Source of the DNA: Actinomycetota bacterium
GTDB lineage: Bacteria; Actinomycetota; Actinomycetes; JAKEEW01
Assembly (NCBI GenBank): GCA_046725875.1
Contig: JBKOZJ010000062.1
Span: 6,937-70,936 of the forward strand
Length of the DNA: 64,000 nucleotides
Direction of reading: 5' to 3'
Under the pieces are notes generated by a model, which was given only the letters and a program-made list of their open reading frames with translations, did no database searches and was not told the origin of the DNA. Below, one piece after another: positions 19,398-35,960 of this stretch. The translations under genes and the position numbers were made by a program. Numbering within the stretch: position 1 is the first letter of the stretch; each line of letters opens with the position of its first letter.

Positions 19398-19470
19398 AGG
19401 TCGCGAATCGGAAACTGCCGGTGAGCTGCCGGTGGACCTGCCTGGCGAGGACGGAGGTGAGCGATCAGCC
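19398..19470 (+). promoter_or_regulatory. CTGCC-box leader-like element, copy D (the most divergent)
   Basis: The core is GAAACTGCCGGTGAGCTGCCGGTGGACCTGCCTGG at 19411-19445, about 200 nt upstream of the DHFR-family gene at 19677. Confidence 0.5.
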
Positions 19471-19676
19471 TTGTAGGCCGAGCAGCCAAGTGTCCGCGAG
19501 GAAGTGTCCCGATGCGCAGGCGCGTCGCCAACTTCTCCTTTTGCGGGACTGCTTCATGGCAGCGCCGCACACGGAACGGTTCCGACTCCGCCGACGAGAT
19601 GGGCTAGGGATCAGCGCGTCGTTCGCTCCCTCAGGTAGCGGCCGGCACAGCCATTCCGAACGTAAGGGGCCAGATC

Positions 19677-20321
19677 ATGGAGCTAAGCGTGAACACATTC
19701 GTCAGCTTGGACGGCGTCATGCAGGGTCCGGGCGGTGCAGCCGAGGACACGACCGGCGGATTCGGCCGGGGCGGCTGGCAGGTGCCGTACGCCGACCAGG
19801 ACATGGGCCGCATCGTGGAGCAGGACTGGTTCGCCAAAGCAGACGCATTCCTGCTCGGTCGCACCACATACCAGTTGATGTACCCGTACTGGTCCACGGT
19901 GACCGACCCGCAGAACCAAATTGCGACCGCCCTGAACGCGCTCCCGAAATTCGTGGCGTCGCGGTCGATGACCCAACCCGCGGCGGAGTGGCGAGACACC
20001 ACGACGGTCGTCAGTGGTGACCTCGTCGAGGAGATCCGCAAGCTCAAGCAGCGCCCAGGCCGTGAACTGCAGATTCACGGCAGCTGGCAGCTTGCGCGCG
20101 CGGTCCACGAGGCGGGTCTTGCCGACGTGTACCGGTTGCTGGTCTTCCCGGTGGCGGTTTGTGCGGGCAAGCGTCTCTTCGACGACGCCAGCACGCCGAC
20201 ATCGTTCAAGGTCGAGTCCGCAGAGACCACCAGTGCCGGAACGATGTCCCTGACTCTGCGTCCTTCCCCCTTCGCCACCGGAGACTTCATTGTGGAGGAC
20301 GGCCGCGAGTCGGTGGCCTGA
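19677..20321 (+). CDS. dihydrofolate reductase family protein (RibD C-terminal domain type)
   Basis: VSLDGVMQGPGG...FLLGRTTYQLMYPYW...LPKFVASRS...ELQIHGSWQLA...YRLLVFPVAVCAGKRLF is the typical pattern for this family. Confidence 0.88.
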   Translation: MELSVNTFVSLDGVMQGPGGAAEDTTGGFGRGGWQVPYADQDMGRIVEQDWFAKADAFLLGRTTYQLMYPYWSTVTDPQNQIATALNALPKFVASRSMTQPAAEWRDTTTVVSGDLVEEIRKLKQRPGRELQIHGSWQLARAVHEAGLADVYRLLVFPVAVCAGKRLFDDASTPTSFKVESAETTSAGTMSLTLRPSPFATGDFIVEDGRESVA

Positions 20322-20381
20322 CGTCGCCGCTCCCCCGCCAGTTACTGTTCGGTTCTGCGACGACGTATCGGCTGGCTCGGA

Positions 20382-20924
20382 CTAGGTCTCTCGGAAGCCC
20401 TGGGCGAAGCGCCAGGCGGGGTGCGCGGCGCGGAGCAGGCCAAGATGCTGGTTCCACTCGGCGGGTTCCAGGGCTCGCGGCGATGTGCACGCCGGTACGC
20501 CTTCCGCAATGGTGAAGCCCCAAGCGAATCCGGCGACTGCGTGGATCTCACGCACAGCCGGATCGGCGACGTGACAGAGGAAGCTGTGTGCCAGCCAGTC
20601 GAGGTCGGCTCGACTGTCGCGCGACGGCGCGTCAAACAAGGTCGGCTTGATGCCGAAGAACCCGAACGGATGTGGGACGTCGCCGAGGATTTCGAGCGGA
20701 TCCATCTCAAATTGCCGGCCACCGCTGCTGTTGTCGGTGGAGCGGACGAGTTGGATCCAGCCGAGCATGCCTGTGTAGCCCTTGCCTGGGTAGCGGACGG
20801 TGGCTTCGCAGAAGGCAAGGCCAGCGGCGCCCGGGGCAGCCCCAAGCTCTCCCGGACGTCGGGTCGCGCGGACCTTGATCGCGATTGCTCCCGTAAAGCC
20901 GTGTAACGAGAACCCCAGATTCAC
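20382..20924 (-). CDS. hypothetical protein
   Basis: This 180-aa ORF has GC3-rich codon usage and fills the gap between convergent and divergent neighbours. I recognise no family. Confidence 0.55.
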   Translation of the reverse strand: MNLGFSLHGFTGAIAIKVRATRRPGELGAAPGAAGLAFCEATVRYPGKGYTGMLGWIQLVRSTDNSSGGRQFEMDPLEILGDVPHPFGFFGIKPTLFDAPSRDSRADLDWLAHSFLCHVADPAVREIHAVAGFAWGFTIAEGVPACTSPRALEPAEWNQHLGLLRAAHPAWRFAQGFRET

Positions 20925-21090
20925 GACCGGAATGTACCAAGATTGCCGGAAACTACCCCTGAAGGCGGGACGCGTGAGATGCCGATGGGCGTGTTATCGC
21001 GTGGCTTTGCTGCAAATTCGCCGCGGCCTGGGGAAACAGTCGCCCGGTCGCCCACTCGGTGTATGGAGTGTCAGGCTGTCTGTCGTGAGC

Positions 21091-22941
21091 ATGACCCCCA
21101 TCGCCGACTACGCGCTGCTGTCCGACCGACACTCGGCCGCCCTGGTGAGTCGCAGCGGCTCGGTCGATTGGCTGTGCTTTCCGAGGTTTGACAGCCCGGC
21201 AGTCTTTGCCCGGCTGCTCGACGACGATGCGGGCCATTGGTCTATCCAACCAACAGGTCCATTCAGCGTGAGCCGCCGCTATGTGGATAAGACCATGGTC
21301 CTCGAGACGTGGTTTCAAACCGACACGGGAACAGCGGTGGTCACCGACGCGCTGCTCGTGGGTCCGGATAACGAAAATCACCAGTTGGGTGCCGAGGCTC
21401 CGCACGTACTCGTCCGGCGGGTCGTCTGCGAAACCGGAAGCGTCGAGTTGGAGATCGCGTACCGGCCGCGTCCGGAGTACGGCCTCATCTCCCCAATTCT
21501 GAGCCCGATCGACGGTGGCGTGACGTCGCGCGGCGGAGCGGAGTGGCTGGTGCTCACCACACCGGCGCCGCTGAAGCTCGACGGTGGAGAGATGCACGGT
21601 TGGCTGCCGATGGTCGCGGGCCAGAGCGTCCACTTCGGCATGCACAGATCGACTCTGGAAGAGACCCCCGGGCGTGTGTGGGGGCAGCGTGACCTGCGCG
21701 ACGGGCTCGACGAGACGGTCCGGGCTTGGCAGTCGTGGTCGGCCCACCATCAGGCGTACGAGGGGCCCTGGGAGGACCTCGTCCACCAAAGTGGACGGGT
21801 TCTTAGCGCCCTGTCGTACCAACCGAGCGGAGCCATCGTCGCGGCGCCCACGACGTCGCTCCCCGAGGCGGTCGGTGGTGAGCGGAACTGGGACTACCGC
21901 TATGCCTGGGTTCGCGACGCGAGCCTGACCATGGAGGCACTCTGGGTGGCCGCGTGTCCCTACGAGGCGGCGGACTTCTTCGCCTTTCTGGCCGCGGCTG
22001 CCTCGATCAGCAGCGACCAGCCGCTGCAGGTCATGTTCGGCATCGGCGGTGAGCATGACCTGACCGAGCGGACCCTGCCGCACTTGCAAGGGTGGCGAGA
22101 CAGTCGGCCTGTGCGGGTGGGGAATGGGGCGTGGAATCAACAACAGATCGACGTGTACGGAGAGCTGTGGAGCGCCGCTTTCCGGCTCGTCGAACTGCTG
22201 GGCGACATCGACGACGACACCCGACGTTTTCTCGCAGGTTGTGCCGACCTCGCGGCCCGGCGGTGGGTGGAGAAGGACCGCGGAATCTGGGAAGTGCGCG
22301 GTGACCCGCAGCATTTTCTCTACTCGAAGGTGATGTGCTGGGCTGCGCTCGACCGCGCGGTCAGAATGTCCGATCGACTGGCGGTTACGGGCCGCGTCGA
22401 CTCGTGGGCGCGGACGCGCGACGAAATCCATGCGGCGGTGCTACGCGAGGGATGGAGCGATGAGGTCGGCGCTTTCACCCAGTTTTTCGGCTCGCAGGAT
22501 CTGGACGCATCGAACCTGATGATGCCCATCGTCGGGTTCCTTCCGGCGGACGACCCGCGCGTCCTTGCCACGATCGACGCGATCGAAGGACACCTCACCG
22601 ACGAGAAAGGTCTGGTCTATCGGTATCGCACCGAAACCGGAGTCGATGGAATCGCTGGCCAGGAGGGCACGTTCCTGCTGTGCACGTTCTGGCTCGCCCA
22701 GGCGCAGGCGATGGCCGGGCAGGTTGATCGTGCGCGGGCCACCTTCGAACGTGCCGCTGCCTTTGTCAACGAGGTGGGTCTGCTCTCCGAGGAGGTCGAT
22801 CCGGCGACCGGCGAGCTGCTCGGCAACTTCCCGCAGGCGTTTAGCCACATCGGCCTGGTCAACGCGGCTTGGGAGATCAGCGAAGCGGAGCGGCGGCGGG
22901 CCGGCAAGCCAGCGGTGCAGCTATGGAGGCGGCCGACATGA
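21091..22941 (+). CDS. glycoside hydrolase family 15 protein (glucoamylase/trehalase-like)
   Basis: MTPIADYALLSDRHSAALVSRSGSVDWLCFPRFDSPAVFARLL is the characteristic GH15 N-terminus, and the catalytic-domain motif NWDYRYAWVRDAS is present. ATG is at 21091. Confidence 0.9.
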   Translation: MTPIADYALLSDRHSAALVSRSGSVDWLCFPRFDSPAVFARLLDDDAGHWSIQPTGPFSVSRRYVDKTMVLETWFQTDTGTAVVTDALLVGPDNENHQLGAEAPHVLVRRVVCETGSVELEIAYRPRPEYGLISPILSPIDGGVTSRGGAEWLVLTTPAPLKLDGGEMHGWLPMVAGQSVHFGMHRSTLEETPGRVWGQRDLRDGLDETVRAWQSWSAHHQAYEGPWEDLVHQSGRVLSALSYQPSGAIVAAPTTSLPEAVGGERNWDYRYAWVRDASLTMEALWVAACPYEAADFFAFLAAAASISSDQPLQVMFGIGGEHDLTERTLPHLQGWRDSRPVRVGNGAWNQQQIDVYGELWSAAFRLVELLGDIDDDTRRFLAGCADLAARRWVEKDRGIWEVRGDPQHFLYSKVMCWAALDRAVRMSDRLAVTGRVDSWARTRDEIHAAVLREGWSDEVGAFTQFFGSQDLDASNLMMPIVGFLPADDPRVLATIDAIEGHLTDEKGLVYRYRTETGVDGIAGQEGTFLLCTFWLAQAQAMAGQVDRARATFERAAAFVNEVGLLSEEVDPATGELLGNFPQAFSHIGLVNAAWEISEAERRRAGKPAVQLWRRPT

Positions 22942-23156
22942 GCTTGCGAAGGACGGGAACCGCATGCCGATTCCCAGCCACCCCAACCGGATCGCCGGCG
23001 CGGGTGCATCCGTTAGCGCCGGTCGCGGCGATCCGCGAGAGCAGCTTCGTGCATTAGGGCTGCATTGCGGCGGCCGGCGCATCCAGGGCTTAGCGATCGC
23101 ACAGGCGCCAGCTCTACCCGGTGGCCCCGGCGTACGGCGTCCGGGGCCGTCCCCAC

Positions 23157-23246
23157 CCGAAACCGATCTCGGTCACGAACTTGCCGGTGTTCTGCCGGGT
23201 GATCTGCCTGGCCCGGCGCGGGCTGCGTATCACACCCTCGCTGAGG
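23157..23246 (+). promoter_or_regulatory. CTGCC-box leader-like element, copy A
   Basis: The sequence reads CCGAAACCGATCTCGG-TCAC-GAACTTGCCGGTGTTCTGCCGGGTGATCTGCCTGG, then hairpin GCCCG-GCG-CGGGC, then CCTCGCTGAGG. It ends 60 nt before GTG 23306. A GC hairpin (23123-23148) lies just 5' of it. Confidence 0.55.
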
Positions 23247-23305
23247 TCGAAATTGGCTCAATCCCGCTAAACGGGCGACCGTCTGCGGGTGAGGAGGTTG
23301 GTCCT

Positions 23306-23890
23306 GTGAGCAAGTTGGCAATCGTCGAGTACCTATCACTGGACGGCGTGATCCAGGCGCCTGGGCATGCCGGAGAAGACCCAGAGGGCGGGTTCGCGCA
23401 CGGCGGCTGGACGGGCGAGTTCATGGCCGACCATCGGCGCTACAACAGCCAGCTGTTCCCCACCGCCGGCGCGTTCCTATTCGGTCGGCGCACCTACGAG
23501 ATCTTCGCCGAGTACTGGCCGACGGTGACCGACGGAACCGACCGCATCGCCGCGGCCCTGAATATCCGGCCCAAGTTCGTCGCATCCACCACCCTGCGCA
23601 ATCCCGCCTGGCCAGGGACAACGGTGCTCAGCGGTGACGTGGCCGAGGAGGTCGCCAAGCTGAAGGAGCAGTCGGGGGACCCGATCCTCGTCCTCGGGAG
23701 CGGCAGGCTCGCGCAGACACTGCTGGCCCACGACCTGGTCGATGAATATCAGCTGTGGCTGCACCCAGTGGTGCTCGGCAGCGGAAAGCGACTGTTCGAC
23801 GGCGGCGACCAGGACCCCATCAGGCTGCGGCTAGCGGACGCCACAATGACCCGCGACGGCCTCGTGATCCTCACCTACCAGCGGGCCTGA
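23306..23890 (+). CDS. dihydrofolate reductase family protein (RibD C-terminal domain type)
   Basis: GTG 23306 follows the RBS GAGGAGG. LSLDGVIQAPG...FLFGRRTYEIFAEYW...RPKFVASTT...ILVLGSGRLAQ...YQLWLHPVVLGSGKRLF matches the family pattern. The 441-aa track ORF is an upstream run-on. Confidence 0.85.
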   Translation: MSKLAIVEYLSLDGVIQAPGHAGEDPEGGFAHGGWTGEFMADHRRYNSQLFPTAGAFLFGRRTYEIFAEYWPTVTDGTDRIAAALNIRPKFVASTTLRNPAWPGTTVLSGDVAEEVAKLKEQSGDPILVLGSGRLAQTLLAHDLVDEYQLWLHPVVLGSGKRLFDGGDQDPIRLRLADATMTRDGLVILTYQRA

Positions 23891-23949
23891 CCCAAACCCG
23901 GACTGTGATGCGCAGCTGTCCCCTCCGCCCCGAGCGGACGTGGCCACCT

Positions 23950-24642
23950 CTACTCCTCGATCGCTCCGCCGATCCGCCGAAGATGCAGCCGGAAGGTGTA
24001 GGACGGATCGGCTGCGCGTCGGGTCAGATAGTCCTCGAATGCCGTCTGCTCCCGCAGCGACTGACCCGACCGGATCCTGCGGGCCTGTTCGCGCTCCGTC
24101 TGCCAGATCTGATGCGCCGTAGCCAGCACCTCCTCCGCGCGCTCGGCGGTGACGAACAACACCCCATCCTCGTCGCCGACGACAATGTCCTTGGCGGTCA
24201 CCTCGTGCGGCCCGAATCGCGCGCTGACCAGCGCCTGGGGCTCCTGCTCGGCCAGCCGGACGGGGCCAGGGGGGTAGCTGCCATAGCTGAACACCGGGAA
24301 GTCGATCTCCACCAGCTCCGGTGTGTCCCGGTGCAGCCCCCACACGACTAGGCCGGCCACCCCAGCCGCCTGGGCCTCCAGCACTGCCAGGTCGCCAACA
24401 CACGCCTCGTCTACCCGCCCGCCGTTGTCGATGACCAACACGTCACCGTCTTCGGCTCGAGCAAACGCCTCCAGGAACACGTCAACACTGCCGTAGTGCC
24501 GAGCCGGCAGCGCGCGTCCGGCGATCCGCCGGCCGCGCACGACAGCGGCGATACCTGGCGGCGCCGCGCGCAGGGGCACGTCGAGTCGTACGCAGGCATC
24601 GGCCACCAGCGGCGTGGACAAATCAGCGAAAGACTCGAGCAT
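23950..24642 (-). CDS. RraA-family protein (RraA / HMG-CHA aldolase-like)
   Basis: STPLVADAC...GDVLVIDNGGRVDEACVGDLAVLEAQAAGVAGLVVWGLHRD fits the RraA fold pattern. A C-terminal extension of about 60 aa follows. Confidence 0.82.
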   Translation of the reverse strand: MLESFADLSTPLVADACVRLDVPLRAAPPGIAAVVRGRRIAGRALPARHYGSVDVFLEAFARAEDGDVLVIDNGGRVDEACVGDLAVLEAQAAGVAGLVVWGLHRDTPELVEIDFPVFSYGSYPPGPVRLAEQEPQALVSARFGPHEVTAKDIVVGDEDGVLFVTAERAEEVLATAHQIWQTEREQARRIRSGQSLREQTAFEDYLTRRAADPSYTFRLHLRRIGGAIEE

Positions 24643-24773
24643 CGCCCTCTCCCTGGCTAGGCCTCGTCACCCCCGCCAACGACCCGACGGTACGAAGCGC
24701 CGCGATCTGACAGCTCGGCCCAAACACCGGCGCGCTCCCACGTCGCCGTTCCCCGACCGGACGGACGGAGCCC

Positions 24774-25280
24774 CTAGGCCAACACTAATTCCATGAACAC
24801 CCAGTGGGCTTTGTACTCGTCGGGGATCTCGCTTTCGGCGTACGGAGCACTATGGACAAACCCACGCGAGCGATACAGGCCGTGCGCGGCGGTCATGAAA
24901 TCAGGACTGTCAAGTCGAACTCGTGCATACCGCTCGGCGTGCGCCGCCGCAATGAGCTCGTCGAGCAAGGCGCGGCCCACCCCGGTGCGGCGATGAGACG
25001 GTTTGACGTACATGCGCTTGATCTCCGCAATGTCCGGGCCGATTCGTTTCATACACGCGGTCCCGATGGCCCGATCTCCCTCGACAGCCAGCAGGAGGCA
25101 ACCATCGGGCGGCTGGAACTTGGCCAGGCTCTTGAGGTCGCGATCCACCGCCTCGCGCACCGGGAGCCGGAACCCGTACCTCGACTCGAGCCCATCGTTC
25201 CCCCAGTTGAGGTACTCCAGCCACAGCGCCACGACCGCGTCGAGATCCAGAGGCAGGTTCGCCTCTCGAATCTGCGCCAT
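24774..25280 (-). CDS. GNAT family N-acetyltransferase
   Basis: The acetyl-CoA motif is MYVKPSHRRTGVGRALLDELI. Length is 168 aa. Confidence 0.9.
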   Translation of the reverse strand: MAQIREANLPLDLDAVVALWLEYLNWGNDGLESRYGFRLPVREAVDRDLKSLAKFQPPDGCLLLAVEGDRAIGTACMKRIGPDIAEIKRMYVKPSHRRTGVGRALLDELIAAAHAERYARVRLDSPDFMTAAHGLYRSRGFVHSAPYAESEIPDEYKAHWVFMELVLA

Positions 25281-25340
25281 GCCGCCTCCTCCAGGCGCTC
25301 TGATCGAGTATTTGTCTCCAGCAGCCCAGCTGGCTGGTGG

Positions 25341-26102: not shown

Positions 26103-26160
26103 ACGTCGACCGTGCCGACGCCGGCCCTGGACGGGCGGCGACGATCAGGAAGTTCCCGGC

Positions 26161-28470
26161 TCAGCGGTAAGGGATCCTGCCCTCAGAGAGGGCGGCGATC
26201 ACGTGTCGGGCGCGGTCCGCTCCCTGCCGTTCACCCGCTTGCTCGAACATTGCGACGGCCTGCTCCAGATGCCGGCGCGCCTCATCGTGTGACCGTTGCG
26301 CCCGAGCAAGGTAGAGGTGGGCGTAGGCCTCCCAGCGCGGGTCACCGAGCGTTCGGGCGAACATAAGAGCCCGCTCCAGGTGCTTGACGGCCTGTTCGAA
26401 CTCTCCATGCTCGTTGTACAGGATGCCGGTCATCAGATCGCTGTACGCGGCATAACCGTCGCTGCCGACCGAGCGGAACAGGTTTCGGCACCCGGCGAGC
26501 AGCGCCAGCGCATCCGCGAAACGGCCCTGGTGGCGGCGGACCTTCGCGAAAAACAGCATCGCTTTCGCCTCACGGTCCGGGTCGCCGAGTCCGCGGCAGA
26601 GCCCGAGAACCTGGTCAAAGCAGGCGGCAGCCTCGGTCAGCCGGCCTTGGCGCCGGTAGGCGCGGGCCAGTCCGATCAGGCTGTCGATCTCACCGGACGT
26701 GTCCCCCAGATTGGAGAAGAGGGCGAGGCTGCATTTGAGGTACTCGACCGACTCGGACGATCGATTCTCAAATCGGCGCAGGTTCCCCAGGCCGCACAAC
26801 AGGGATGCCTCGGCACGCTGGTCGTCCGCGAGTCGCGCGGCACGGAGAGCTACCTGGTAGGTGCGCTCCCATTCATCCCAACACGCGTGCACTTCGAAGA
26901 AGTCCGCGAGGAGCCGGGCGAGCTCCTCGCCCATCCGGCCTAGACCTTCCCGCCACGCCTGATCCAGGCTCACCACCAGACCGGTATGCTCGGCGGCCAG
27001 CCACTGGTACGACCCGGCCAACGTTCCGGAGCCGTCGATGGGAGCAAGCGCTCGCTGGCCCGGCAGCTCCGGGGGCCGAAGCCGAAGCTGGCGGACCGAC
27101 TTCTGGGCGGTCGTGAAGTAGCTCTGCAACGTACGTTCCAATGCGGCACGGCGCTCGGCCGGGCTGTCTTCCACGGCCAGCCGCTCCCGGGCGAACAGGC
27201 GGAGAAGGTCGTGGAACCGGTACCGGACCTGTCCAAGGGCATCCTCACCGACAGCGTCGAGCAGCTGAGCGTCGGCTAGGCGCTCCGCGATGTCTTCCGC
27301 CTCGACGGTTGGGACATCAACGAGCGCCGAGAGCATCCAGGGCGCAAAATCCGGCACCTCGAGCAGGCCGAGAAGCCGAAACGCGCGCCGCTCCCGTGCA
27401 CCGAGGCCTCGATAGCTCAGCGCGACGCTGGCTCGCACCTCCAAGTCGCCCGCACTTAGCTCGTCGAGCCGGCGGTGCTCACCGCCGAGTCGATCGGCCA
27501 ACCGTTGCAACCGCCAGTGTCGCTTTCCGGCCAGTCGCGCGCCCACGACACGCAGTGCGAGCGGCAGGCCTCCGCACATCCTCGCAATCGCCGCAGCCGC
27601 CTGTGGCTCACCCGCTATCCGATCGGCACCAACAATCTTGCCCAGCAGCTCCATCGCCTGCTCCGGCGGGAACACGTCGAGGTCGGTAACGTCTGCTGGT
27701 GGCAGGCCGGTCAGCCGACCACGGCTGGTAACAATGACGATGTTGCGGGGACCCGCCGGCAGCAGCGGGCGGACCTGCCCCTCATCGGCCGCGTTATCGA
27801 GCAGAACCAACGCGCGCAGGTCGGCCAGAAGCGACCGGTAAAGCGCCGCCCGCTCGTCTACAACGTCGGGGATGGAGTGACTGTCGACCCCGAATGCCCG
27901 CAGAAACCCCCTGAGCACCTCCCCCGGGTCGAGTGCCTGCGCCTCAACTCCGCGCAGGTTGACATAAAGCTGGGCGTCCGGGAACAACGAGCGCAGTTGA
28001 TGCGCGAGGTGGATCGCCAGTGTCGTCTTTCCGACCCCTGCCTTTCCGACGACAGCCATGACCATCGCTGCCGTCGAGCCACGTCTGCGGCCCCGCACCC
28101 GGGCCGTGAGTCGCTCCAGCGCCGCATCGCGTCCGGTGAAGTCCTCGATGTCCGGCGGCAGCTGTCGTGGGACCGTACGCGCCGTGGGCAAGGACGCGGC
28201 CACGGCAGAGTCTTCCGTCCGCCCGTTCCCGTCGACAACAGCCTGCTCAATTGCTGCCCGCTCGGCGTCGGTGAGCGCTAGAGCGTCGGCAAGCACTGCA
28301 ATCGAAGATCGACGCGGCCGGTCGACCTTGCCGTGTTCGAGGTCCCTGATGGCCCGGACGCTCATCCCGGATCGGTCGGCCAGCCTCTCCTGGGAAAGGC
28401 CGCGACCCATCCGAAAACCGGCGAGCAGCCGGGAAATCTCGACCCCTCCGTTTGGGTCTGTGTCCGACAC
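26161..28470 (-). CDS. XRE-type HTH + NB-ARC (STAND) ATPase + TPR-repeat regulator
   Basis: The N-terminal HTH is RMGRGLSQERLADRSGMSVRAIRDLEHG. The P-loop is GKAGVGKTTLA, Walker B is LVLLDNA, and GGLPLAL is the NB-ARC signature. The C-terminal ~350 aa consist of TPR-like helical repeats. Confidence 0.88.
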   Translation of the reverse strand: MSDTDPNGGVEISRLLAGFRMGRGLSQERLADRSGMSVRAIRDLEHGKVDRPRRSSIAVLADALALTDAERAAIEQAVVDGNGRTEDSAVAASLPTARTVPRQLPPDIEDFTGRDAALERLTARVRGRRRGSTAAMVMAVVGKAGVGKTTLAIHLAHQLRSLFPDAQLYVNLRGVEAQALDPGEVLRGFLRAFGVDSHSIPDVVDERAALYRSLLADLRALVLLDNAADEGQVRPLLPAGPRNIVIVTSRGRLTGLPPADVTDLDVFPPEQAMELLGKIVGADRIAGEPQAAAAIARMCGGLPLALRVVGARLAGKRHWRLQRLADRLGGEHRRLDELSAGDLEVRASVALSYRGLGARERRAFRLLGLLEVPDFAPWMLSALVDVPTVEAEDIAERLADAQLLDAVGEDALGQVRYRFHDLLRLFARERLAVEDSPAERRAALERTLQSYFTTAQKSVRQLRLRPPELPGQRALAPIDGSGTLAGSYQWLAAEHTGLVVSLDQAWREGLGRMGEELARLLADFFEVHACWDEWERTYQVALRAARLADDQRAEASLLCGLGNLRRFENRSSESVEYLKCSLALFSNLGDTSGEIDSLIGLARAYRRQGRLTEAAACFDQVLGLCRGLGDPDREAKAMLFFAKVRRHQGRFADALALLAGCRNLFRSVGSDGYAAYSDLMTGILYNEHGEFEQAVKHLERALMFARTLGDPRWEAYAHLYLARAQRSHDEARRHLEQAVAMFEQAGERQGADRARHVIAALSEGRIPYR

Positions 28471-28511: not shown

Positions 28512-28536
28512 TAGTATCAGATCGATATCATATGGT
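28512..28536. promoter_or_regulatory. perfect palindrome ATCGATCTGATA-G-TATCAGATCGAT; candidate operator for the XRE-NB-ARC-TPR gene
   Basis: The 12-bp arms were read directly. It sits in a locally AT-rich patch 42-66 nt upstream of the start codon at 28470. Confidence 0.45.
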
Positions 28537-28650
28537 CGAGGGGTATTTCGTGCCTCCGGCCATCCCACGCGGCCCCGTCGCCCCGGAAGCGGTCTCGTTC
28601 GGCCACGGCCACCTCTCTCGCCAGTTCAGGGGGACCGTTGGCACACGCAT

Positions 28651-29307
28651 TCAGCGACGGCCGAGCTCGCCCCTGAAGGCCTTGGTGAACGTGTTGATCG
28701 CGTTCGGTTTACCGACAAGTTGCAGCTCATTCCCGACTTCGCGGGATGCGCGGGGCCTCGTCAAGAACCGGGCCCAGGCGTCGGGAGTCGCGTCCACAAT
28801 CACGCTGGGATCCTCGGCACCACCCCGCGATAGCGTCCAGACGCCCCCCTCGAAGCTGAGTGTGTAGGCGTCATCAAGGGGAAATCGCCAAACCCAGGTA
28901 ACCGGCTCACCGGGGGCGGCATTCCGATCCAGCCACGCTTTGGTGCCGATCATCGTCGGTATCGGATAGACCGGCTCGCCCGCCCGCGGCGGCTCCAAGG
29001 CGTGCTCGATCCCCCAAAGTGTCAATGCCCCGACCACCGGCCCCAGAGCATCGCCCGCCGCCGTCAGCCGGTACCAGACCTCTCGTCCATGTGCTGGCTG
29101 CTCGCGGGTGACAACGCCCTCGGCCTCGAGCTGGCGAAGGCGATTGGTCAGTGTCGTCGGTGTTATGTCGGCGAGGCCGCGGGCCAGATCAGTGAACCGT
29201 CGCGGTCCGAGACTTAGATCTCGCACGATCAACAGCGACCATCGCTCGCCTACCACCTCGAGCGCCCGCGCCATCATGCAGAAGTGCCGATATGTGTGAG
29301 TATCCAT
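28651..29307 (-). CDS. HxlR-type winged-helix regulator with a ~110-aa C-terminal extension (paralog 1)
   Basis: FCMMARALEVVGERWSLLIVRDLSLGPRRFTDLARGLADITPTTLTNRLRQLEAEGVV is the HxlR pattern. I take the start as ATG 29307. It is a near-duplicate of 30010-30660. Confidence 0.8.
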   Translation of the reverse strand: MDTHTYRHFCMMARALEVVGERWSLLIVRDLSLGPRRFTDLARGLADITPTTLTNRLRQLEAEGVVTREQPAHGREVWYRLTAAGDALGPVVGALTLWGIEHALEPPRAGEPVYPIPTMIGTKAWLDRNAAPGEPVTWVWRFPLDDAYTLSFEGGVWTLSRGGAEDPSVIVDATPDAWARFLTRPRASREVGNELQLVGKPNAINTFTKAFRGELGRR

Positions 29308-29583
29308 GCACTCCCCTGGCGGCCCCATCAACCTCTCGTGCCGTAGCGATAGCCGCGTTTCGGTCCGCGGTCACCCGCGTTCGTGGCGGGCGATTTAGGA
29401 CGGCGGAGTCGACGATACTTGATCGCCTTCCCAGCCGCCGCAGCCCTTGGCTGATCGTGTGCAGCGGTGTAGGTGGCTCGGATCACGCATGGGGAAGCGC
29501 GGCCTTCAGGCTCGGTCCGGAGAGGCTGCGTGCTGTCCTGCGCCGACGCCTGATGGCCGCCGGTTTGGATGTCCCCTGCATGT

Positions 29584-29640
29584 TCATTCGGTGCAGCGGC
29601 CGGCGCAGGGCCAAAGCACGGTGTTATGCGGACGAGAAAA
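29584..29640 (-). pseudogene. ~19-codon 3' remnant of an SDR gene (copy of the 3' end of 30853-31626)
   Basis: TCATTCGGTGCAGCGGCCGGCGCAGGGCCAAAGCACGGTGTTATGCGGACGAGAAA aligns with 30853-30908, and homology then stops. Confidence 0.4.
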
Positions 29641-29711
29641 CATCGTCACTCCGACACGCCCCGCGCCCTCGAATATTCGATGTCTCGCAAATGGTCATTC
29701 GATCCTGGCTG

Positions 29712-29866
29712 CGATCGGGCAGTGTGCCGAGACCAAGAGTCTGGGCACTGACCAGATCAACCAATATGCCAAAACCGTGACCAGGACGGCCGATTCGTCA
29801 AGGTCTCAGCACATTGCCCGATCGCGATTCCTCGAAAACTCACGGTCCTCGCGCACCGCCTGATCT
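29712..29866. repeat. nested-palindrome repeat, copy 2
   Basis: It has the same four-box architecture as 17770-17925, with about a dozen substitutions or indels by eye. The flanks also match the 17.7 kb and 18.96-19.04 kb regions. Confidence 0.7.
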
Positions 29867-30009
29867 CCGAGGACGGCGATGATCGACTCGGCCGTCGCGA
29901 GCTGCCCGGACAGCCCGCAGAGCGTCGCTGGCGCGCCGAGTTCACACGTAAGACCTGAGCGACCGCCGCGACTCACCTCACAACTCGGCCGCACAGGGCC
30001 AGTTTGCGC

Positions 30010-30660
30010 TCAGCTAGCGGTGAGCTCCTCCGTGAACGCCTTGGTGAACGCGTTGATCGCGTTCGGTTTACCGACAAGTTGGACCTCATTCCCGAGCTGC
30101 CGGGATCTGCGGGGCGCGGTGAAGAACCGGGCCCAGGCGTCGGGGGTCGCGTCCACAATCACGCTGGGATCCTCGGCAGCACCCGGCAGTAGCGTCCAGA
30201 CATACCCGTCGAAGCTGAGTGTGAAGGCGTCATCAGGGGGAAATCGCCAGACCCAGGTAACCGGCTCACCGGGGGAGACGTACCGATCCAGCCACGCTTT
30301 GGTGCCGATCATCGTCGGTATCGGATAGACCGGCTCCCAGGCCCGCGGCGGCTCCAGGGCATGCTCGATTCCCCAAAGTGTCAATGCCTCGATCACCGGT
30401 CCCAGGTCATCACCCGCCGCGGTCAGCCGGTACCAGACCTCCCGCCCATGTGCTGGTTGCTCGCGGGTGACAACGCCCTCGGCCTCGAGGTGGCGAAGGC
30501 GATTGGTCAGTGTCGTCGGTGTTATGTCGGCGAGGCCGCGGGCCAGATCGGTGAACCGTCGCGGTCCGAGACTTAGATCTCGCACGATCAACAGCGACCA
30601 TCGCTCGCCTACCACCTCGAGCGCTCGTGCAATCACGCAGAAGTGCCGATATGCAAGCAT
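30010..30660 (-). CDS. HxlR-type winged-helix regulator with a C-terminal extension (paralog 2)
   Basis: It is the same protein as 28651-29307 apart from scattered substitutions and a different last ~8 aa. ATG is at 30660 (MLAYRHFCVIARALEVVGERW...). Confidence 0.8.
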   Translation of the reverse strand: MLAYRHFCVIARALEVVGERWSLLIVRDLSLGPRRFTDLARGLADITPTTLTNRLRHLEAEGVVTREQPAHGREVWYRLTAAGDDLGPVIEALTLWGIEHALEPPRAWEPVYPIPTMIGTKAWLDRYVSPGEPVTWVWRFPPDDAFTLSFDGYVWTLLPGAAEDPSVIVDATPDAWARFFTAPRRSRQLGNEVQLVGKPNAINAFTKAFTEELTAS

Positions 30661-30852
30661 CCATGCACTCCCCTGACGCGCTAAGGTGCCGATCGTTGCA
30701 AGGACGGGTGCAGTTGGGGTGCGCGCCACCCGCAGCCGGCCGCTTCTCGGCTCAGACAAGGGGAGCTTCCCGGCTTTCCGGCTCGGTCTGGAGAGGTTGC
30801 GTACTGTCTTGCGCCGACGGCCTGATGGCCGCGGGTTGGGCTCCCCGCGTGT

Positions 30853-31626
30853 TCATGCGGTGCAGCAGCCGGCGCAGGCAAAGCGCGGCGTTATGCGGAC
30901 GAGAAAGGACACCAAGAACTTGTAGCGGAGGCTGTACACGGCAACCGGCTTGCCGCGCCGCATCGCCCGATAACCGGAACGAGCCACCTCAGCCGGGCCG
31001 ACGCTCGTGGTGGCCATGTAGTTGGTCGGCGCGATCTGGGCTCCGCGGACGAACGGGGTGTCCACCGGCGGTGGGCAGAGCGCCGTCACATGCACGCCGC
31101 TACCGCGCAACTCCTCGATGAGCGCCTCGGAAAACGCGAGCACGTAGTGCTTCGTGGCGAAGTACACGCTCATCAGCGGGCCAGGCACGAAGCTGGTCAC
31201 CGATGCCACGTTCAGGATGTGTCCATCTCGTCGCTCCAGCATCGCCGGCAGGAACAGACGAGTGAGCCCGGTCAGGGCCGTAATGTTGAGTCCGATCATT
31301 CGCTCCTGCTTGGCCCGGTCGCTCGTCGCAAACTCGCCGTAATCGCCGAAGCCCGCATTGTTGATCAGGCAGTCCACCTCCGCGCCCAACGCCTGAACTT
31401 GCTGGTAGACCTCCGCGGCGGCACCAGGCCGGCTCAGATCGTTGGCGATCGTGTGCACTGTGACACTCCGCCCCAACTCTCCGGCTGCCGAGTCAAGGCC
31501 AGGGACCTGCCGAGCGACCAAGATGAGCTGGCGTCCGTCTGCCGCGGCCCGGCGAGCCAGCTCCAGTCCAATCCCGCTGGTGGCGCCGGTTATCAGGGTG
31601 AAAGTTGACCGGGTTTCGTTGGTCAT
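30853..31626 (-). CDS. SDR family oxidoreductase
   Basis: It has ITGATSGIGLELARR, NNAG, and YFATKHY (YxxxK). Confidence 0.9.
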   Translation of the reverse strand: MTNETRSTFTLITGATSGIGLELARRAAADGRQLILVARQVPGLDSAAGELGRSVTVHTIANDLSRPGAAAEVYQQVQALGAEVDCLINNAGFGDYGEFATSDRAKQERMIGLNITALTGLTRLFLPAMLERRDGHILNVASVTSFVPGPLMSVYFATKHYVLAFSEALIEELRGSGVHVTALCPPPVDTPFVRGAQIAPTNYMATTSVGPAEVARSGYRAMRRGKPVAVYSLRYKFLVSFLVRITPRFACAGCCTA

Positions 31627-31677
31627 CGACAGATCTCCTTGAACTTGCCGGTTCCCGTCCTTGACAGTCGACGCGGG

Positions 31678-32088
31678 CTACTGCGGGTGCGTGTCATCGG
31701 TTGGCGGCGGCGGGGTCCGCACGTTGTGACGATCGGCGATGTCGCGGATCGCTGCCGCGAGGAGATCCGGGTGCTCGCTGGTGGTGAGGTGGCCGCCCGG
31801 GAAGGTCAGCACATCGGCCCGCGGCACGCGCTCGCGGGCGGCCCGGATCTGCCGGTGCTCGTAGGCGTCCTCCTCGCTGCCGCCGACGTAGAGGGCGACC
31901 GCGCCGTCCATGTCGCGGGCGATCACGCCAAGGTCACGCTCGAAAACCCGAAGCGCGCCCGCGGTTGCCGCGGCCTCCGCCTCGGTCAATACGCGCGCCG
32001 AGTTCGGGTCGTACCAAATGCGCTCGCCACCCGCGAACCACTCCGCAGCCGTCACGCGCGCCAGATTCTGCCGAGGCAACCTAGTCAA
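31678..32088 (-). CDS. hypothetical protein (resembles the C-terminal half of an alpha/beta hydrolase)
   Basis: The 136-aa ORF has GC3-rich codons. The tail VLTFPGGHLTTSEHPDLLAAAIRDI looks like the catalytic-His end of alpha/beta hydrolases, but no nucleophile elbow is present. Confidence 0.5.
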   Translation of the reverse strand: MTRLPRQNLARVTAAEWFAGGERIWYDPNSARVLTEAEAAATAGALRVFERDLGVIARDMDGAVALYVGGSEEDAYEHRQIRAARERVPRADVLTFPGGHLTTSEHPDLLAAAIRDIADRHNVRTPPPPTDDTHPQ

Positions 32089-32188
32089 TCTTCCTGAGTG
32101 TCACGTCCATCGCCAGCCGCCACATCTCCCGGTCGTTGGTTTGCCACTGCGGCTCAACACTGGTTCCGGGGTTTGAGCGAAGCCTGGT

Positions 32189-32257
32189 CCTTGCTCGGCA
32201 GATCGCCAAGGCAGAACGACCGGCAGATACCGGCAACTTCGACGGCGATCGTTTTGG
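32189..32257 (-). promoter_or_regulatory. CTGCC-box leader-like element, copy E (minus strand)
   Basis: The reverse complement reads CCAAAACGATCGCCGTCGAAGTTGCCGGTATCTGCCGGTCGTTCTGCCTTGG, then hairpin CCTTG...CAAGG, then CTTCGCTCA. It faces the minus-strand gene that starts at 32088. Confidence 0.5.
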
Positions 32258-32337
32258 GTCTCGGTGCTGTCCCATCCCGTGGTCGCGGCGGTTGCCATCG
32301 ACGCCGATCTGGAAAGCACGAAACCCTCCACATGCAG

Positions 32338-32428
32338 CCGAGAACGGATCTCCGGTACGAAACTGCCGGTGTTCTGCCGGATGATCTGCCTTGTCCGGCG
32401 CCGGACGCATGCCGCACGCTCGCTGAGG
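32338..32428 (+). promoter_or_regulatory. CTGCC-box leader-like element, copy B
   Basis: The sequence reads CCGAGAACGGATCTCCGG-TAC-GAAACTGCCGGTGTTCTGCCGGATGATCTGCCTTG, then hairpin GTCCG-GCGC-CGGAC, then GCTCGCTGAGG. It ends 160 nt upstream of GTG 32588. Confidence 0.55.
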
Positions 32429-32587
32429 ACCCCGGCCACGGCCTGGGCCGGTAGCACATCCGGACACTCGCGGTGGTCGCCGACTCCGGAAAGCCCGCAA
32501 CGCCGGCCGCCGCCGGGCTCACCCTGCGGCGGGGCGAAGGTTCACCCGGTGCAGACGCACAGCAGCACGGAAGACGTAGGGGGACCA

Positions 32588-34768
32588 GTGTTTTCTCGGC
32601 TGGCAGACCTGATCAACCGCCGTCCGTGGCAGTTGCTGGCGGTCATCTTTGTGGTGACCGCCATCGCCGCCCCGCTCGGGGGAAGCGTCCGCGAACATCT
32701 CAAGCCTCGCGGCTTCGACGTGGCCGGCTCCAGCAGCGCCGAGGCACGCGAGACCATCGCCGCGGCCGCCGCGATCGATCCGGCAAACAGCGTCCTCGCT
32801 TTGGTGCGCCTCGGCGCTCCAATCAGCACGGCCACCGCACAGCGAACAATCGCGGCCGTTGAGACGAAGCTCCGCAATGATCCGGCGGTCGCCGCCGTCC
32901 TCGACTGGCGCTCGGCTCGCAATCCAGCCATGGTCGGGCGGGACGGTCGCTCGACCTACCTGATCGCAGCGTTTCGGCCGTTGGAAGACGAGCAGCAAGA
33001 GGAGGCCGGGAAGCGGCTAGTCGCCACCTTCGCCGACGACCCACAGGTTCGGCTGGGCGGCAACCCGGTGGCGAACCACGAGATCTCCAAAACCATCGAG
33101 GACGACCTGCGCCGGGCCGAGCTGCTGGCCGTGCCGCTGATCGTGCTGCTGTCGTTTTTCATCTTCCGTGGCTTTGTGGCGAGCCTGCTCGCGCCGCTCG
33201 CGGGCGGCATCACCGTCATTGTCAGCTTCTTCCTGCTGCGCGAGCTGGCCTCGCTCACCTCACTGTCGATCTACGCGCTCAATCTGGTCACCGGGTTGTC
33301 GATCGGGCTGTCGATCGACTGGAGCCTGCTGCTCGTCTCCCGCTACCGCGAGGAGCGCGCGCGGACGGCCGACCTGCAGCTCGCGCTGCGCCGCGCACTT
33401 ATCCGCGCCGGCCATACGATCCTGTACAGCGCCGCCACGGTGGCCGCCGCGATGGCGACGCTGCTCGTGTTCCCACTGCGTTTCCTGCGATCGATGGGCT
33501 ACGGCGGGGTGATCGCCGCGACCGTGGCGATGCTCGCCGCAATCATCGTGCTGCCGGTCGTGCTGCGGCTGCTCGGACCACGGGTAGACGCGCTGACCCT
33601 GCCGCGTTGGCGCGACCCGAAGCGGCTGGCCCGGCCGGCACCCTTCTGGCGCGGCGTCGGTCGCCTCGCAACCCGATATCCGATCCCGGTGGCGACCATC
33701 GTCGTGGTCGTGCTGCTCGCGGTCGCGACACCGGTGTTCCGCGTGCAGTGGACGACAGTCGATGCGAGCACTCTGCCGACATCTGCGCAAGCGTTCCAGG
33801 CCGACCGGGCAATTAATCACTCCAGCGAATTCGTGCCCAACGCCGGTACACCGTTCTACCTCGCCGTCAAGGCCCCGGCGGACGCCGGCGCATCGGTGGC
33901 GGCCGTCGCCAAGAGCGCGCGCGAGCTCGACGGCATACGCGCCGTCGCACCGCCGCAGCGCCTGGGCACCGACACCTGGCAGATCAACTTGGTCGCGCGC
34001 GATACCCCCTTCAGCGACTCGACCCAACGCCTGGTCGGCGATCTACGTGCGCTCAAAACCGGCCTACCGCTCTTCGTCGGCGGCGACGCCGCTGCGTTCT
34101 ATGACGAACGCGCCGCGATCGGCTCCAACCTCCCGATTGCGATCGCACTCCTCAGCGTCGCGACGCTGATCATCCTCTTCCTACTCTCGGGCTCGATCGT
34201 CGCGCCGCCGCTCGCCCTGCTGATGAATGCGCTCACGCTCGCCGCGGCGTTTGGAGCACTGACTCTGATCTTCCAGGACGGGCGCTTCGAGTCGCTGCTC
34301 AGCTATACCAGCCAAGGCGCGCTCGATCTCACCATCCCGCTGGTGTTGGCCGCGCTCGTCTTCGCCATCTCCACCGACTATGGCGTCTTCCTGCTCAGCC
34401 GCATCCGCGAGGCACGACTCCACGGCCGAACCGAGCGCGAAGCGATCAGCGGCAGCGTCGCCACCGTCGGTCGCATCGTCACCTCCGCCGCGGTCCTGTT
34501 CGCCGTATCGATCGGCATCTTCGGCACCTCGAACATCGTCGTCCTGAAGATCCTTGGCATCGGCACCGCCATCGCGGTGCTCGCGGACGCGCTGCTCGTC
34601 CGCTGCCTCCTCCTCCCCGCCGCGCTCACCCTGCTGGGCCGCCGCACCTGGCTGCTGCCCCGCTCGCTCTCGCGGCTCTATTGGCGGATCGGCCTGCACG
34701 AAGAAGACGACGCCGCCCCCGTGACGCCCGAGATCCCTGACCTAGCCGAAGGCAGAATGAGCGGATGA
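32588..34768 (+). CDS. MMPL family (RND-superfamily) transporter
   Basis: GTG 32588 follows GGGGGA. The N-terminus is VFSRLADLINRRPWQLL, typical of MMPL proteins. There are two 6-TM bundles with large extracytoplasmic loops. The 834-aa track ORF is an upstream run-on. Confidence 0.9.
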   Translation: MFSRLADLINRRPWQLLAVIFVVTAIAAPLGGSVREHLKPRGFDVAGSSSAEARETIAAAAAIDPANSVLALVRLGAPISTATAQRTIAAVETKLRNDPAVAAVLDWRSARNPAMVGRDGRSTYLIAAFRPLEDEQQEEAGKRLVATFADDPQVRLGGNPVANHEISKTIEDDLRRAELLAVPLIVLLSFFIFRGFVASLLAPLAGGITVIVSFFLLRELASLTSLSIYALNLVTGLSIGLSIDWSLLLVSRYREERARTADLQLALRRALIRAGHTILYSAATVAAAMATLLVFPLRFLRSMGYGGVIAATVAMLAAIIVLPVVLRLLGPRVDALTLPRWRDPKRLARPAPFWRGVGRLATRYPIPVATIVVVVLLAVATPVFRVQWTTVDASTLPTSAQAFQADRAINHSSEFVPNAGTPFYLAVKAPADAGASVAAVAKSARELDGIRAVAPPQRLGTDTWQINLVARDTPFSDSTQRLVGDLRALKTGLPLFVGGDAAAFYDERAAIGSNLPIAIALLSVATLIILFLLSGSIVAPPLALLMNALTLAAAFGALTLIFQDGRFESLLSYTSQGALDLTIPLVLAALVFAISTDYGVFLLSRIREARLHGRTEREAISGSVATVGRIVTSAAVLFAVSIGIFGTSNIVVLKILGIGTAIAVLADALLVRCLLLPAALTLLGRRTWLLPRSLSRLYWRIGLHEEDDAAPVTPEIPDLAEGRMSG

Positions 34769-35346
34769 ATCGAGGGCCCGCGGAGGGCGAATCGGCGGGC
34801 AAGTACGCGCGGTTCGAGTTCGAACGCCGCTTCCTCGTCGACTACCTCCCCGACACAATCGCCAGGGGTCGGGGCTGGCGCATCACGGACCGCTACATCG
34901 ACAACACGCACCTGCGGCTCCGCCGCATGGAGCCGATCGGCGACGGCGAAGCGGCCTACAAACTAGGGCAGAAGCACGTCCCGAACCCGCCTGACTTTGC
35001 CCGGATGAGGATCACGAACATCTACCTCCAGGCTGACGAATACCACGTCTTCGCGCGGCTACCCGCGCATGAACTGCGAAAGCATCGCCATCTGCTGGAA
35101 GCCGACGGACGTACGTACAGCATCGATATCTTCGACGGCCCCCTCGCCGGCCTGGTCCTCGCCGAGACCGGGTTCACGACCAGCCAGGACATGATCGTAC
35201 GAGTGCACCTCCCGCCTTGGATCGCCCGGGAGGTATCTGACGACGTTCGTTTCACGGGCGGCACGCTTGCGGCGCTCACGCCCGTCGCCGCGGCAAACCT
35301 TATCCAGGAATTCACCGGCACATCCCGTCGGCGAGGCTCCGGCTAA
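34765..35346 (+). CDS. CYTH-domain protein (triphosphate tunnel metalloenzyme family)
   Basis: The N-terminal ExExK-type signature is FEFERRFLV, followed by later acidic strands. The start overlaps the MMPL stop (ATGA). Confidence 0.72.
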   Translation: MNRGPAEGESAGKYARFEFERRFLVDYLPDTIARGRGWRITDRYIDNTHLRLRRMEPIGDGEAAYKLGQKHVPNPPDFARMRITNIYLQADEYHVFARLPAHELRKHRHLLEADGRTYSIDIFDGPLAGLVLAETGFTTSQDMIVRVHLPPWIAREVSDDVRFTGGTLAALTPVAAANLIQEFTGTSRRRGSG

Positions 35347-35834
35347 GCAAGCTGCCACCGGATTTCGTCCCCGTCCATGCCCGTGCGAGCGAAGCCGAGC
35401 CGCTCGAGTGTACGTATTGAGGCAACGTTCCCTCGGTCGCAGGCGGCGAGGATCACCTCGACATCCTCTTGGCCGCGCGCCCAGTCGACCAATGCGGCCG
35501 CCGCCTCGCTCGCATACCCGCGGCGCCGGCGGCCCGGAACCACGCTGTATCCGATCTCGACAGCCCCATCTGCCGGCAGGCCTTTGAAACCGACGTCGCC
35601 GACGACGGTCTGCGTGGCCCGCTCGATGATGACCCAGATGCCGAAGTCCGCTGCTCGGCCCTCCTTCTGCAACTGCAGCGGCAGGACGTCGAGCAGGTCT
35701 GCCTGGGGCCAGTCGGCTGGCAGCGTCGCACCGAGTAGCGCCTCGGCCGCCGCTCTATCGCGGGGGAGCACCGCGGCCACCGCCGGTGGCAGAGGGCGAA
35801 GCTCGAGCCGCTCGGTCCGCAAGCTACTCGTCAT
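35343..35834 (-). CDS. GNAT family N-acetyltransferase (RimJ/RimL-like)
   Basis: The N-terminus is TERLELRPL, and the acetyl-CoA motif is VVPGRRRRGYASEAAAALVDWA. Confidence 0.88.
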   Translation of the reverse strand: MTSSLRTERLELRPLPPAVAAVLPRDRAAAEALLGATLPADWPQADLLDVLPLQLQKEGRAADFGIWVIIERATQTVVGDVGFKGLPADGAVEIGYSVVPGRRRRGYASEAAAALVDWARGQEDVEVILAACDRGNVASIRTLERLGFARTGMDGDEIRWQLA

Positions 35835-35871
35835 CGCGACAGCCTATGCACGAGCCGGACTGCACATCCTG

Positions 35872-35960
35872 ACCGAAACGATCTCGGCGTAGAAACTGCC
35901 GGTGATCTGCCGGACCATCTGCCTTGCCGGACCCAGACAGGCAACCGATCCTCGCTAAGA
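35872..35960 (+). promoter_or_regulatory. CTGCC-box leader-like element, copy C
   Basis: The sequence reads CCGAAACGATCTCGG-CGTA-GAAACTGCCGGTGATCTGCCGGACCATCTGCCTTG, then hairpin TTGCC...GGCAA, then CCTCGCTAAGAG. It ends 144 nt upstream of GTG 36104. Confidence 0.55.

Follow-up and report, generated by a model that had tools for sequence, protein, structure and literature searches.

MalT, the regulator of the maltose regulon of Escherichia coli, is a STAND-class activator that oligomerises when triggered by ligand and ATP, and binds several asymmetric direct-repeat boxes, the proximal one near -38, at promoters with a poor -35; it carries a C-terminal helix-turn-helix (HTH) of the LuxR type and recognizes a box different from the one described here. 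Sites of the OmpR/PhoB family, such as the PHO boxes of PhoP and PhoB and, in actinomycetes, the boxes of GlnR and MtrA, are likewise tandem direct repeats of about 11 nucleotides (nt) at or overlapping the -35, and they define regulons. The target promoters of Streptomyces antibiotic regulatory proteins (SARPs) carry heptameric direct repeats, often three, in 11-bp units that overlap the -35 (PMC10972967), while their -35 and -10 elements are suboptimal, as in afsS, with its -10 CACTGT (PMC10936776). In the definition of a SARP site, the repeats are 11 or 22 bp apart and 8 bp separate the 3′ repeat from the -10 (PMC10936776); the sites of PhoP and AfsR overlap (PMC10972967). Here, we describe an element built from three CTGCC boxes, present in five copies on a 64,000-nt stretch of contig JBKOZJ010000062.1 of an Actinomycetota bacterium (GCA_046725875.1), which is referred to below as the window.

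It is highly probable that these copies are promoters of the sigma-70 type with three direct heptamer repeats, which form a DNA-level array for one transcription factor. The repeats are CTGCCGG, CTGCCGG, and CTGCC(T)(T/G), the third of which would run into a weak -35 of the form T(T/G)GNNN. Three asymmetric direct heptamers that are one helical turn apart and end at a weak -35 have the layout of a transcription factor target. One factor would bind the boxes side by side on one face of the DNA and thereby co-regulate efflux and detoxification-type genes, encoding MFS and MMPL transporters, RibD_C reductases, alpha/beta-hydrolases, SDRs, cupins, and HxlR regulators.

Five copies of the element in the window

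The window was searched with the core pattern TGCCGGTGNNCTGCCGGN5CTGCC, and the number of matches expected by chance was taken from 100 shuffles. Four exact matches were found (copies D, A, B, and C) against 0.02 expected, and the fifth copy, E, differs from this core by the loss of 1 nt between boxes 1 and 2. Scored with a profile of the core, the five copies reach 35-44 bits, with the next best site in the 64 kb at 9.6 bits. The core element proposed in a first-pass annotation of this DNA is thus real, and reading the segments placed all five copies at the positions given there. The window contains exactly five copies, all inside 17 kb; no additional weak copies were found in it, for example, before the HxlR and STAND-class genes, other MFS genes, or hydrolase genes. 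The copies, with the -35-like and -10-like hexamers discussed below, are as follows:

19411..19471, + strand: copy D promoter module, by sequence pattern and core profile; GAAAC 19411-15, box 1 (TGCCGGT) 19416-22, box 2 (CTGCCGG) 19426-32, box 3 (CTGCC) 19438-42; -35-like TGGCGA 19443-48, 17-nt spacer, -10-like CAGCCT 19466-71, predicted start ~19477-79
23177..23238, + strand: copy A promoter module; box 1 23182-88, box 2 23192-98, box 3 23204-08; -35-like TGGCCC 23209-14, 18-nt spacer, -10-like CACCCT 23233-38, predicted start ~23244-46
32181..32240, - strand: copy E promoter module; box 1 32229-35, box 2 32220-26, box 3 32210-14; -35-like TTGGCG 32204-09, 17-nt spacer, -10-like CAGGCT 32181-86
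32359..32420, + strand: copy B promoter module; box 1 32364-70, box 2 32374-80, box 3 32386-90; -35-like TTGTCC 32391-96, 18-nt spacer, -10-like CACGCT 32415-20
35892..35952, + strand: copy C promoter module; box 1 35897-903, box 2 35907-13, box 3 35919-23; -35-like TTGCCG 35924-29, 17-nt spacer, -10-like GATCCT 35947-52
23165..23172, + strand: degenerate fourth upstream repeat GATCTCGG of copy A, with counterparts at 32347-32355 (B), 35880-35887 (C), and 32243-32250 on the - strand (E)

About 40 nt are common to the copies, and their flanks do not align. Copies E and B are divergent, and a matching divergent pair was found in one of the related loci described below (L065). The fourth box lies ~13 nt above the three boxes in window copies A, B, C, and E; among 38 copies of the wider family, no enrichment of a fourth box or of inverted upstream boxes was found beyond the three boxes.

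A probable promoter signal downstream of the boxes

Related copies were collected by a strict DNA pattern scan of one genome per prokaryotic species and by a second scan of metagenome contigs. The 38 non-redundant copies (<85% identity over 170 nt) were anchored on box 3. Heptamers of the form CTGCC(G/T)(G/T) occur at offsets -23, -12, and 0 in 30, 38, and 38 of them, respectively, giving box spacings of 11 and 12 nt (10 and 12 nt in copy E). Directly 3′ of box 3 stands TTG in 19 copies and TGG in 16, or 35 copies in total; the T after box 3 was in the search pattern, as was the G in the genome scan.

Downstream of this trinucleotide, 32 of the 38 copies have a hexamer NANNNT whose first base lies 28 or 29 nt from that of box 3, where 1.9 copies would be expected (P~8e-36; the background of NANNNT at other offsets is 2.6%). 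The same was true for 24 of 30 groups after the downstream sequence was clustered at 60% identity (P~4e-26). When spacers of 16-19 nt were allowed, 35 copies had a hexamer of this type, mostly with a spacer of 17 or 18 nt. As the metagenome search pattern ended at CTGCCT, this signal was not selected for. There are 22 different hexamers, in which A2 and T6 are kept and the other four positions vary freely. The actinobacterial -10 consensus is TANNNT; the first position is T in only 5 of the 35 copies, making this a weak -10, mostly of the form C/G-A-N-N-N-T.

Taken together, the T(T/G)G hexamer, the 17-18 nt spacer, and NANNNT read as a housekeeping-like promoter architecture of the sigma-70 type, in which NANNNT would be the functional -10 and transcription would start downstream of the boxes. 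With the -10 set at -12 to -7, the boxes lie at about -63 to -57, -52 to -46, and -40 to -36. The conserved core (~-63 to -36) would not be transcribed from this promoter, because it lies upstream of the predicted start. The downstream sequence fits this reading: in seven subfamilies, the start codon lies 8-38 nt past the -10. The short leaders that were read are ~25-30 nt long and have a good Shine-Dalgarno sequence, their start codons standing 19-38 nt past the -10; in the subfamily of L024, an ATG 8 nt past the -10 opens a 193-aa open reading frame (ORF), which looks leaderless. The first-pass annotation had described a conserved YCTCGCTNA tail after the core; the conservation is real, and we read this tail as the -10-like hexamer (CACCCT, CACGCT, GATCCT, or CAGGCT) followed by the first bases after it.

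We lean slightly towards the factor being an activator. This is favored because the core promoter is weak, with few T residues at the first position of the -10 and a partial -35, and because the sites lie at and upstream of the -35, where class I and class II activators bind.

One subfamily has a hairpin or palindrome, overlapping the -10 and the predicted start, whose arms covary (L024 10960-10990, L054, L026, L070 5290-5320, and L073 22195-22225). Its arms are TTTCTGCC/GGCAGAA, AGCTTCGG/CCGAAGCT, or CACCC/GGGTG around a conserved loop, CC(C/T)GATG. In L024, the ATG of this loop is the start of the would-be leaderless 193-aa ORF. The palindrome of the L024/L054 subfamily may be a second operator or a structure at the 5′ end.

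Related loci and the genes behind the element

The genome scan returned 17 loci, of which 10 are real and 7 are chance matches from unrelated phyla. Seven of the real loci belong to the Actinomycetota metagenome-assembled genome (MAG) GS_EKS_MAG_00005, and the others to an Actinomycetes MAG, a Kribbellaceae MAG, and a Kribbella isolate (one each). For the element, the nearest relatives with a name are thus far Kribbellaceae and MAGs of unclassified Actinomycetota. Among metagenome contigs, 52 loci were found, ~40 of them real and all from soil or sediment. The core profile separates real copies (>=32 bits) from chance pattern matches (<=22 bits). In all, ~50 copies beyond those of the window were collected. 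By these scans, the element is restricted to a narrow group of soil actinomycetes.

In the window, each copy faces a co-oriented gene, as the first-pass annotation had said:

19677..20321, + strand: target of copy D, RibD_C (dihydrofolate-reductase-like) gene (Pfam PF01872, E=1.5e-21), with a 5′ untranslated region of ~200 nt
23306..23890, + strand: target of copy A, RibD_C gene (Pfam PF01872, E=2.8e-24)
30853..32088, - strand: targets of copy E, a 136-aa ORF (31678-32088) and an SDR gene (30853-31626; Pfam)
32588..35346, + strand: targets of copy B, an MMPL transporter gene (32588-34768; Pfam) and an overlapping 193-aa ORF (34765-35346)
36104..38338, + strand: targets of copy C, an MFS transporter gene (36104-37603, with a GTG at 36020 as an alternative start) and a RibD_C gene (37799-38338; Pfam)

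Pfam supports the assignments of the RibD_C genes at 19677 and 23306, of MMPL at 32588, of MFS at 36104, and of the SDR gene, while the ORF at 34765-35346, earlier labelled CYTH, is without a Pfam match. Of an alpha/beta-hydrolase profile, the 136-aa ORF at 31678-32088 (- strand) covers only the C-terminal half, and weakly so (E=8e-4, which misses the curated cut-off); it may be a truncated gene. Two hydrolase queries found no N-terminal remnant. That it is a truncated copy of the hydrolases at related loci was rejected, as there is no similarity between them.

The same gene classes recur behind the element elsewhere: MFS at 14 loci, RibD_C at 13, and two alpha/beta-hydrolase families at 11 and 5, as well as SDR, cupin, HxlR, and MMPL genes. 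The copies at related loci are always intergenic and in sense orientation relative to the next gene, and in 28 of the 35 copies having a -10, a co-oriented ORF starts no more than 420 nt away. The regulon or operator that the first-pass annotation had offered as one reading is supported, as related genomes and metagenomes have the core in front of genes of these same classes. Most likely, one regulator would control the efflux pumps, RibD_C reductases, and hydrolases of this uncultured soil actinomycete.

Two further observations concern sequences behind the element. In L006 (reverse complement, ~5400-5970) and L019 (1180-1680), the ~450 nt that follow the element are conserved; their indel lengths are not divisible by three, they contain no convincing ORF, and Rfam has no match to them. 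The promoter may here drive a non-coding RNA that has escaped annotation. L009 (2232-2290) shares the promoter and the first codons (MRKLAV...) with L018 and L063, where the gene is a RibD_C gene; in L009, an MMPL frame follows, which points to re-use of the promoter and start codon through a deletion or fusion.

Tests for RNA structure and coding potential

The first-pass annotation had also proposed a leader RNA, which would be an operator at best if start sites mapped downstream of the element. With the predicted start downstream of the core, this proposal would fail on its own terms, and the tests at the RNA level did not support it either: there was no Rfam match, no excess stability, and no usable covariation. 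At the gathering score, Rfam gave no matches in the window or in 15 related loci. At E<=1, only two irrelevant weak matches inside genes were seen over 19300-36200, with none on the five copies.

The hairpin reported as constant in position corresponds to the spacer between the -35 and -10. Across the 38 copies, it folds no better than dinucleotide shuffles or control segments (mean z +0.11, none below -1.5). A second proposed helix (GATCTCGG with CCGG-NN-GATC) has a mean z of -0.17, with only window copy B below -2, and its 5′ arm is seen in copies of the window but not throughout the family. Over the 38 copies, RNAalifold found only a pairing of box 1 with box 2 (GCCGGU/GCCGGU), which arises because the repeat contains the palindrome CCGG, and which cannot show covariation because the paired bases never vary; the comparison of related copies thus yielded no usable covariation. 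No terminator-like site was found after any of the five window copies, and the short distance from the -10 to the start codon in several subfamilies (8-38 nt) leaves too little space for an expression platform. Judged by these tests, the element is neither a new RNA class nor a riboswitch.

The claim that the element is not coding held: the 1-nt deletion in copy E breaks the frame within the core, and the variation sits in the Ns between boxes, not in third positions. A coding remnant was considered, given that both strands translate into peptide-like sequences (ETAGVLPxDLP and ARQIxRQNTGSF), and was rejected, as no frame is open in all copies and copy E has a frameshift.

D-type copies share a conserved transcribed leader past the promoter (window 19512-19607, + strand; L014, L032/L061, L040, and L066). 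Within it lies a short upstream ORF starting with MR(K/R)(L/R)V, as in MRKLVTTL* (L014 and L040), MRKL* (L066), and a 31-aa ORF in the window. The length of this ORF is not conserved, and the ~200-nt leader precedes RibD_C, MFS, or hydrolase genes depending on the locus. This leader could be a leader-peptide attenuator, and it is the sole place with a plausible post-transcriptional layer.

Alternative explanations

The same promoter and array could be the operator of a repressor, which would block sigma region 4 at the -35 until an inducer arrives. We regard this as unlikely, although it is the alternative to be taken most seriously: efflux and detoxification genes are often controlled by repressors, an HxlR-family regulator is encoded nearby, and box 3 abuts and overlaps the -35-like hexamer. 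However, two of the three boxes lie well upstream of the -35, where a repressor would gain little, the classical repressors of these gene classes bind palindromes whereas this array is direct, and a weak core promoter is typical of activator-dependent promoters such as that of afsS (PMC10936776). A much smaller probability goes to the core being a cis-acting leader RNA made from an upstream promoter, be it a riboswitch or an RNA whose three CUGCC repeats are bound by a protein. The element stands in sense before every gene, 60-230 nt from the start codon, and boxes 1 and 2 can pair (GCCGGU/GCCGGU). Repeat arrays are bound by some RNA-binding attenuator proteins. Against this, the -35/-10 pair lies below the core in 32-35 of the 38 copies, no terminator or helix sequestering the Shine-Dalgarno sequence lies between the -10 and the start codons 8-38 nt after it in seven subfamilies, and the copies share no upstream promoter or conserved upstream sequence.

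Marginally less probable again is a promoter for an extracytoplasmic function (ECF)-type sigma factor, in which GAAAC would serve as the -35 and a CGTT-like sequence between boxes 2 and 3 as the -10. Some copies do have GGAAC or GAAAC with CGTT 18 nt on (L001, L009, L018, L035, and window copy E), and a 439-aa ECF-like sigma factor is encoded at 15527-16846. Such promoters conserve the -10 and not the spacer, yet nowhere does the core vary more than in the 5 nt that separate box 2 from box 3 (TCGTT, TCATT, TGGGG, GTGAT, ACCAT, and TATTA, among others), while the CTGCC boxes, which would be the spacer, are invariant in the retrieved copies, where the search pattern fixed them. This candidate was rejected, as its would-be -10 is the core's most variable part. 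The faintest chance is left to a dispersed mobile repeat (resembling MITE or REP sequences) or a coding remnant without a regulatory role. The element is multi-copy and clustered in one 17-kb island, it has the peptide-like translations noted above on both strands, and transposase genes occur at some related loci. However, only ~40 nt are shared between flanks that are not homologous, and no inverted-repeat pairing of flank with core was seen (no direct search was made for terminal inverted repeats or target-site duplications). The copies are always intergenic and co-oriented with the next gene, the distance from core to -10 is fixed, and the core of copy E has a 1-nt indel with no open frame shared. 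A random dispersed repeat is excluded because the element stands in sense before the same gene classes across loci.

Several points count against the promoter array itself. The promoter is read from sequence statistics and its start is predicted. The conservation of the boxes among retrieved loci was partly imposed by the search pattern, NANNNT is missing from its expected place in 3 of the 38 copies, and at the Kribbella-type loci, the element has no following gene. The covarying palindrome at the -10 and start in the L024/L054 subfamily is unexplained by the promoter model. A scan of 19000-36500 with the E. coli consensus found no promoter sites, as is expected for weak promoters of high GC content; the scan lends no support to the model.

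A candidate regulator

Regulatory genes encoded between copies A and E include the following:

26161..28470, - strand: candidate regulator, a 769-aa HTH_31(XRE)-NB-ARC-TPR protein of the STAND class of NTPases (Pfam)
28651..30759, - strand: two tandem HxlR-SCP2 regulator genes, 28651-29331 and 30010-30759 (Pfam), just upstream of the STAND-class gene

From this neighborhood, the HTH_31-NB-ARC-TPR protein is put forward tentatively as the factor that binds the array; it would oligomerise on a ligand signal and thereby fill the three boxes side by side. HxlR-SCP2, which may instead be its partner, is a doubtful candidate on the same grounds, and the remainder of the probability lies with an unlinked factor. 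The HxlR-SCP2 genes are a tandem duplication with a spacing of 1359 nt and 87% identity over 300 nt. Other regulators are encoded in the vicinity, namely the 439-aa ECF-like sigma factor (15527-16846, - strand), which has a long C-terminal extension, and a 1182-aa AAA_16-LuxR regulator of the LAL type (42793-46341, + strand); neither adjoins an element.

Proteins of the HTH_31 type adjoin elements at several related loci (L016/L006/L019, L045, L053, L026, L065, and L003), and homologs of the STAND-class protein adjoin element-like matches also in L070, L075, and L076. At the Kribbella-type loci L016/L006/L019, as read in L016, the element lies ~10 nt past the stop codon of the regulator. The order in L045 is element, HxlR-SCP2, STAND-class gene, and the pair of an HxlR gene followed by a STAND-class gene recurs in L045, L070, and L076. 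In L053, the STAND-class gene is divergent from the element, and its product also has a SARP domain. Eight loci were fetched through homologs of the window protein, without using the element as bait, and seven of these have element-like matches within 10 kb. Three exceed the 22-bit ceiling of chance matches: L070 (42.9 bits, in an HxlR/hydrolase intergenic region), L076 (34.1 bits, upstream of an HxlR-LuxR pair), and L075 (27.7 bits, a member of a divergent pair).

Other findings speak against this assignment, which is made from gene neighborhood. No element was found upstream of the HxlR-SCP2 or STAND-class genes in the window. Among the homolog loci, L071 has no element, and L073, L077, and L078 have only degenerate three-box variants of 12-14 bits, below the chance ceiling. 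The regulator family is very large (4991 matches at E<=1e-30, many at 65-70% identity), and the association of element and regulator may be one with the island, since the islands share cargo genes.

The HTH_31-NB-ARC-TPR family has a ~770-aa form and a ~1050-aa form, which are ~70% identical over their shared parts (L053, L073, and L078; P0002-P0120). The longer form has a SARP module (Trans_reg_C and BTAD) between the HTH and NB-ARC, and thus two DNA-binding domains per protein. The presence of this insert in the neighboring regulator showed no clean pattern with the strength of the element.

A more speculative proposal, which we think possible but would not favor, is that the CTGCC array is the first DNA target of the XRE-HTH_31/NB-ARC/TPR family (with or without the SARP insert), which would switch on the island of efflux, RibD_C, and hydrolase genes with an HxlR-SCP2 partner. 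The STAND-class protein would sense a small molecule, oligomerise, and occupy the heptamers at -60, -49, and -38; the HxlR-SCP2 partner would be encoded in the same operon, and the island would be a xenobiotic or antibiotic response.

The CTGCC motif is clean and readily searchable, and it defines a regulon in poorly known soil actinomycetes. This regulon joins MFS and MMPL transporters, many RibD_C paralogs, hydrolases, and SDRs, probably under one signal, such as xenobiotic or antibiotic stress. The motif also offers a concrete DNA target for the abundant class of XRE-NB-ARC-TPR regulators, and the false lead of a new riboswitch class is removed.

Comparison with known systems

The literature was searched for the box sequence and for the gene combination, and nothing relevant was found. 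The CTGCC-box motif and its regulon are previously undescribed, while a direct-repeat array on a weak promoter is of a familiar kind. Riboswitches and leaders in Rfam are similar in standing in sense before transporter and reductase genes and in being multi-copy in one genome; they differ in that the element matches no model, has no conserved structure, and has its core upstream of the predicted -10. Compared with the sites of the OmpR/PhoB family, the consensus is different, and no response regulator is linked to the element. MalT would share the logic proposed for the candidate regulator, which differs by having an N-terminal HTH of the XRE type.

The systems controlled by SARPs (ActII-ORF4, DnrI, and AfsR/afsS) also have heptameric direct repeats in units of ~11 nt that reach the -35 of a weak promoter. 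Their regulators can be large NB-ARC/TPR proteins of the STAND class (PMC10972967; PMC10936776), and close paralogs (~70% identity) of the STAND-class protein in the window carry an inserted SARP domain. However, the window repeat CTGCCGG is unrelated to known SARP boxes, its spacing is 11 and then 12 nt, and box 3 ends 21-22 nt before the -10 instead of 8 bp, which places the array one turn further upstream (~-38, -49, and -60). The candidate regulator of the window has an HTH_31 of the XRE type and no SARP domain (neither Trans_reg_C nor BTAD), and the scanned ORFs of the window include no SARP. Instead of a cluster for antibiotic biosynthesis, the element precedes genes for transporters and detoxification-type enzymes. 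By its layout, then, the element would work in the manner of a SARP site without being a classical one.

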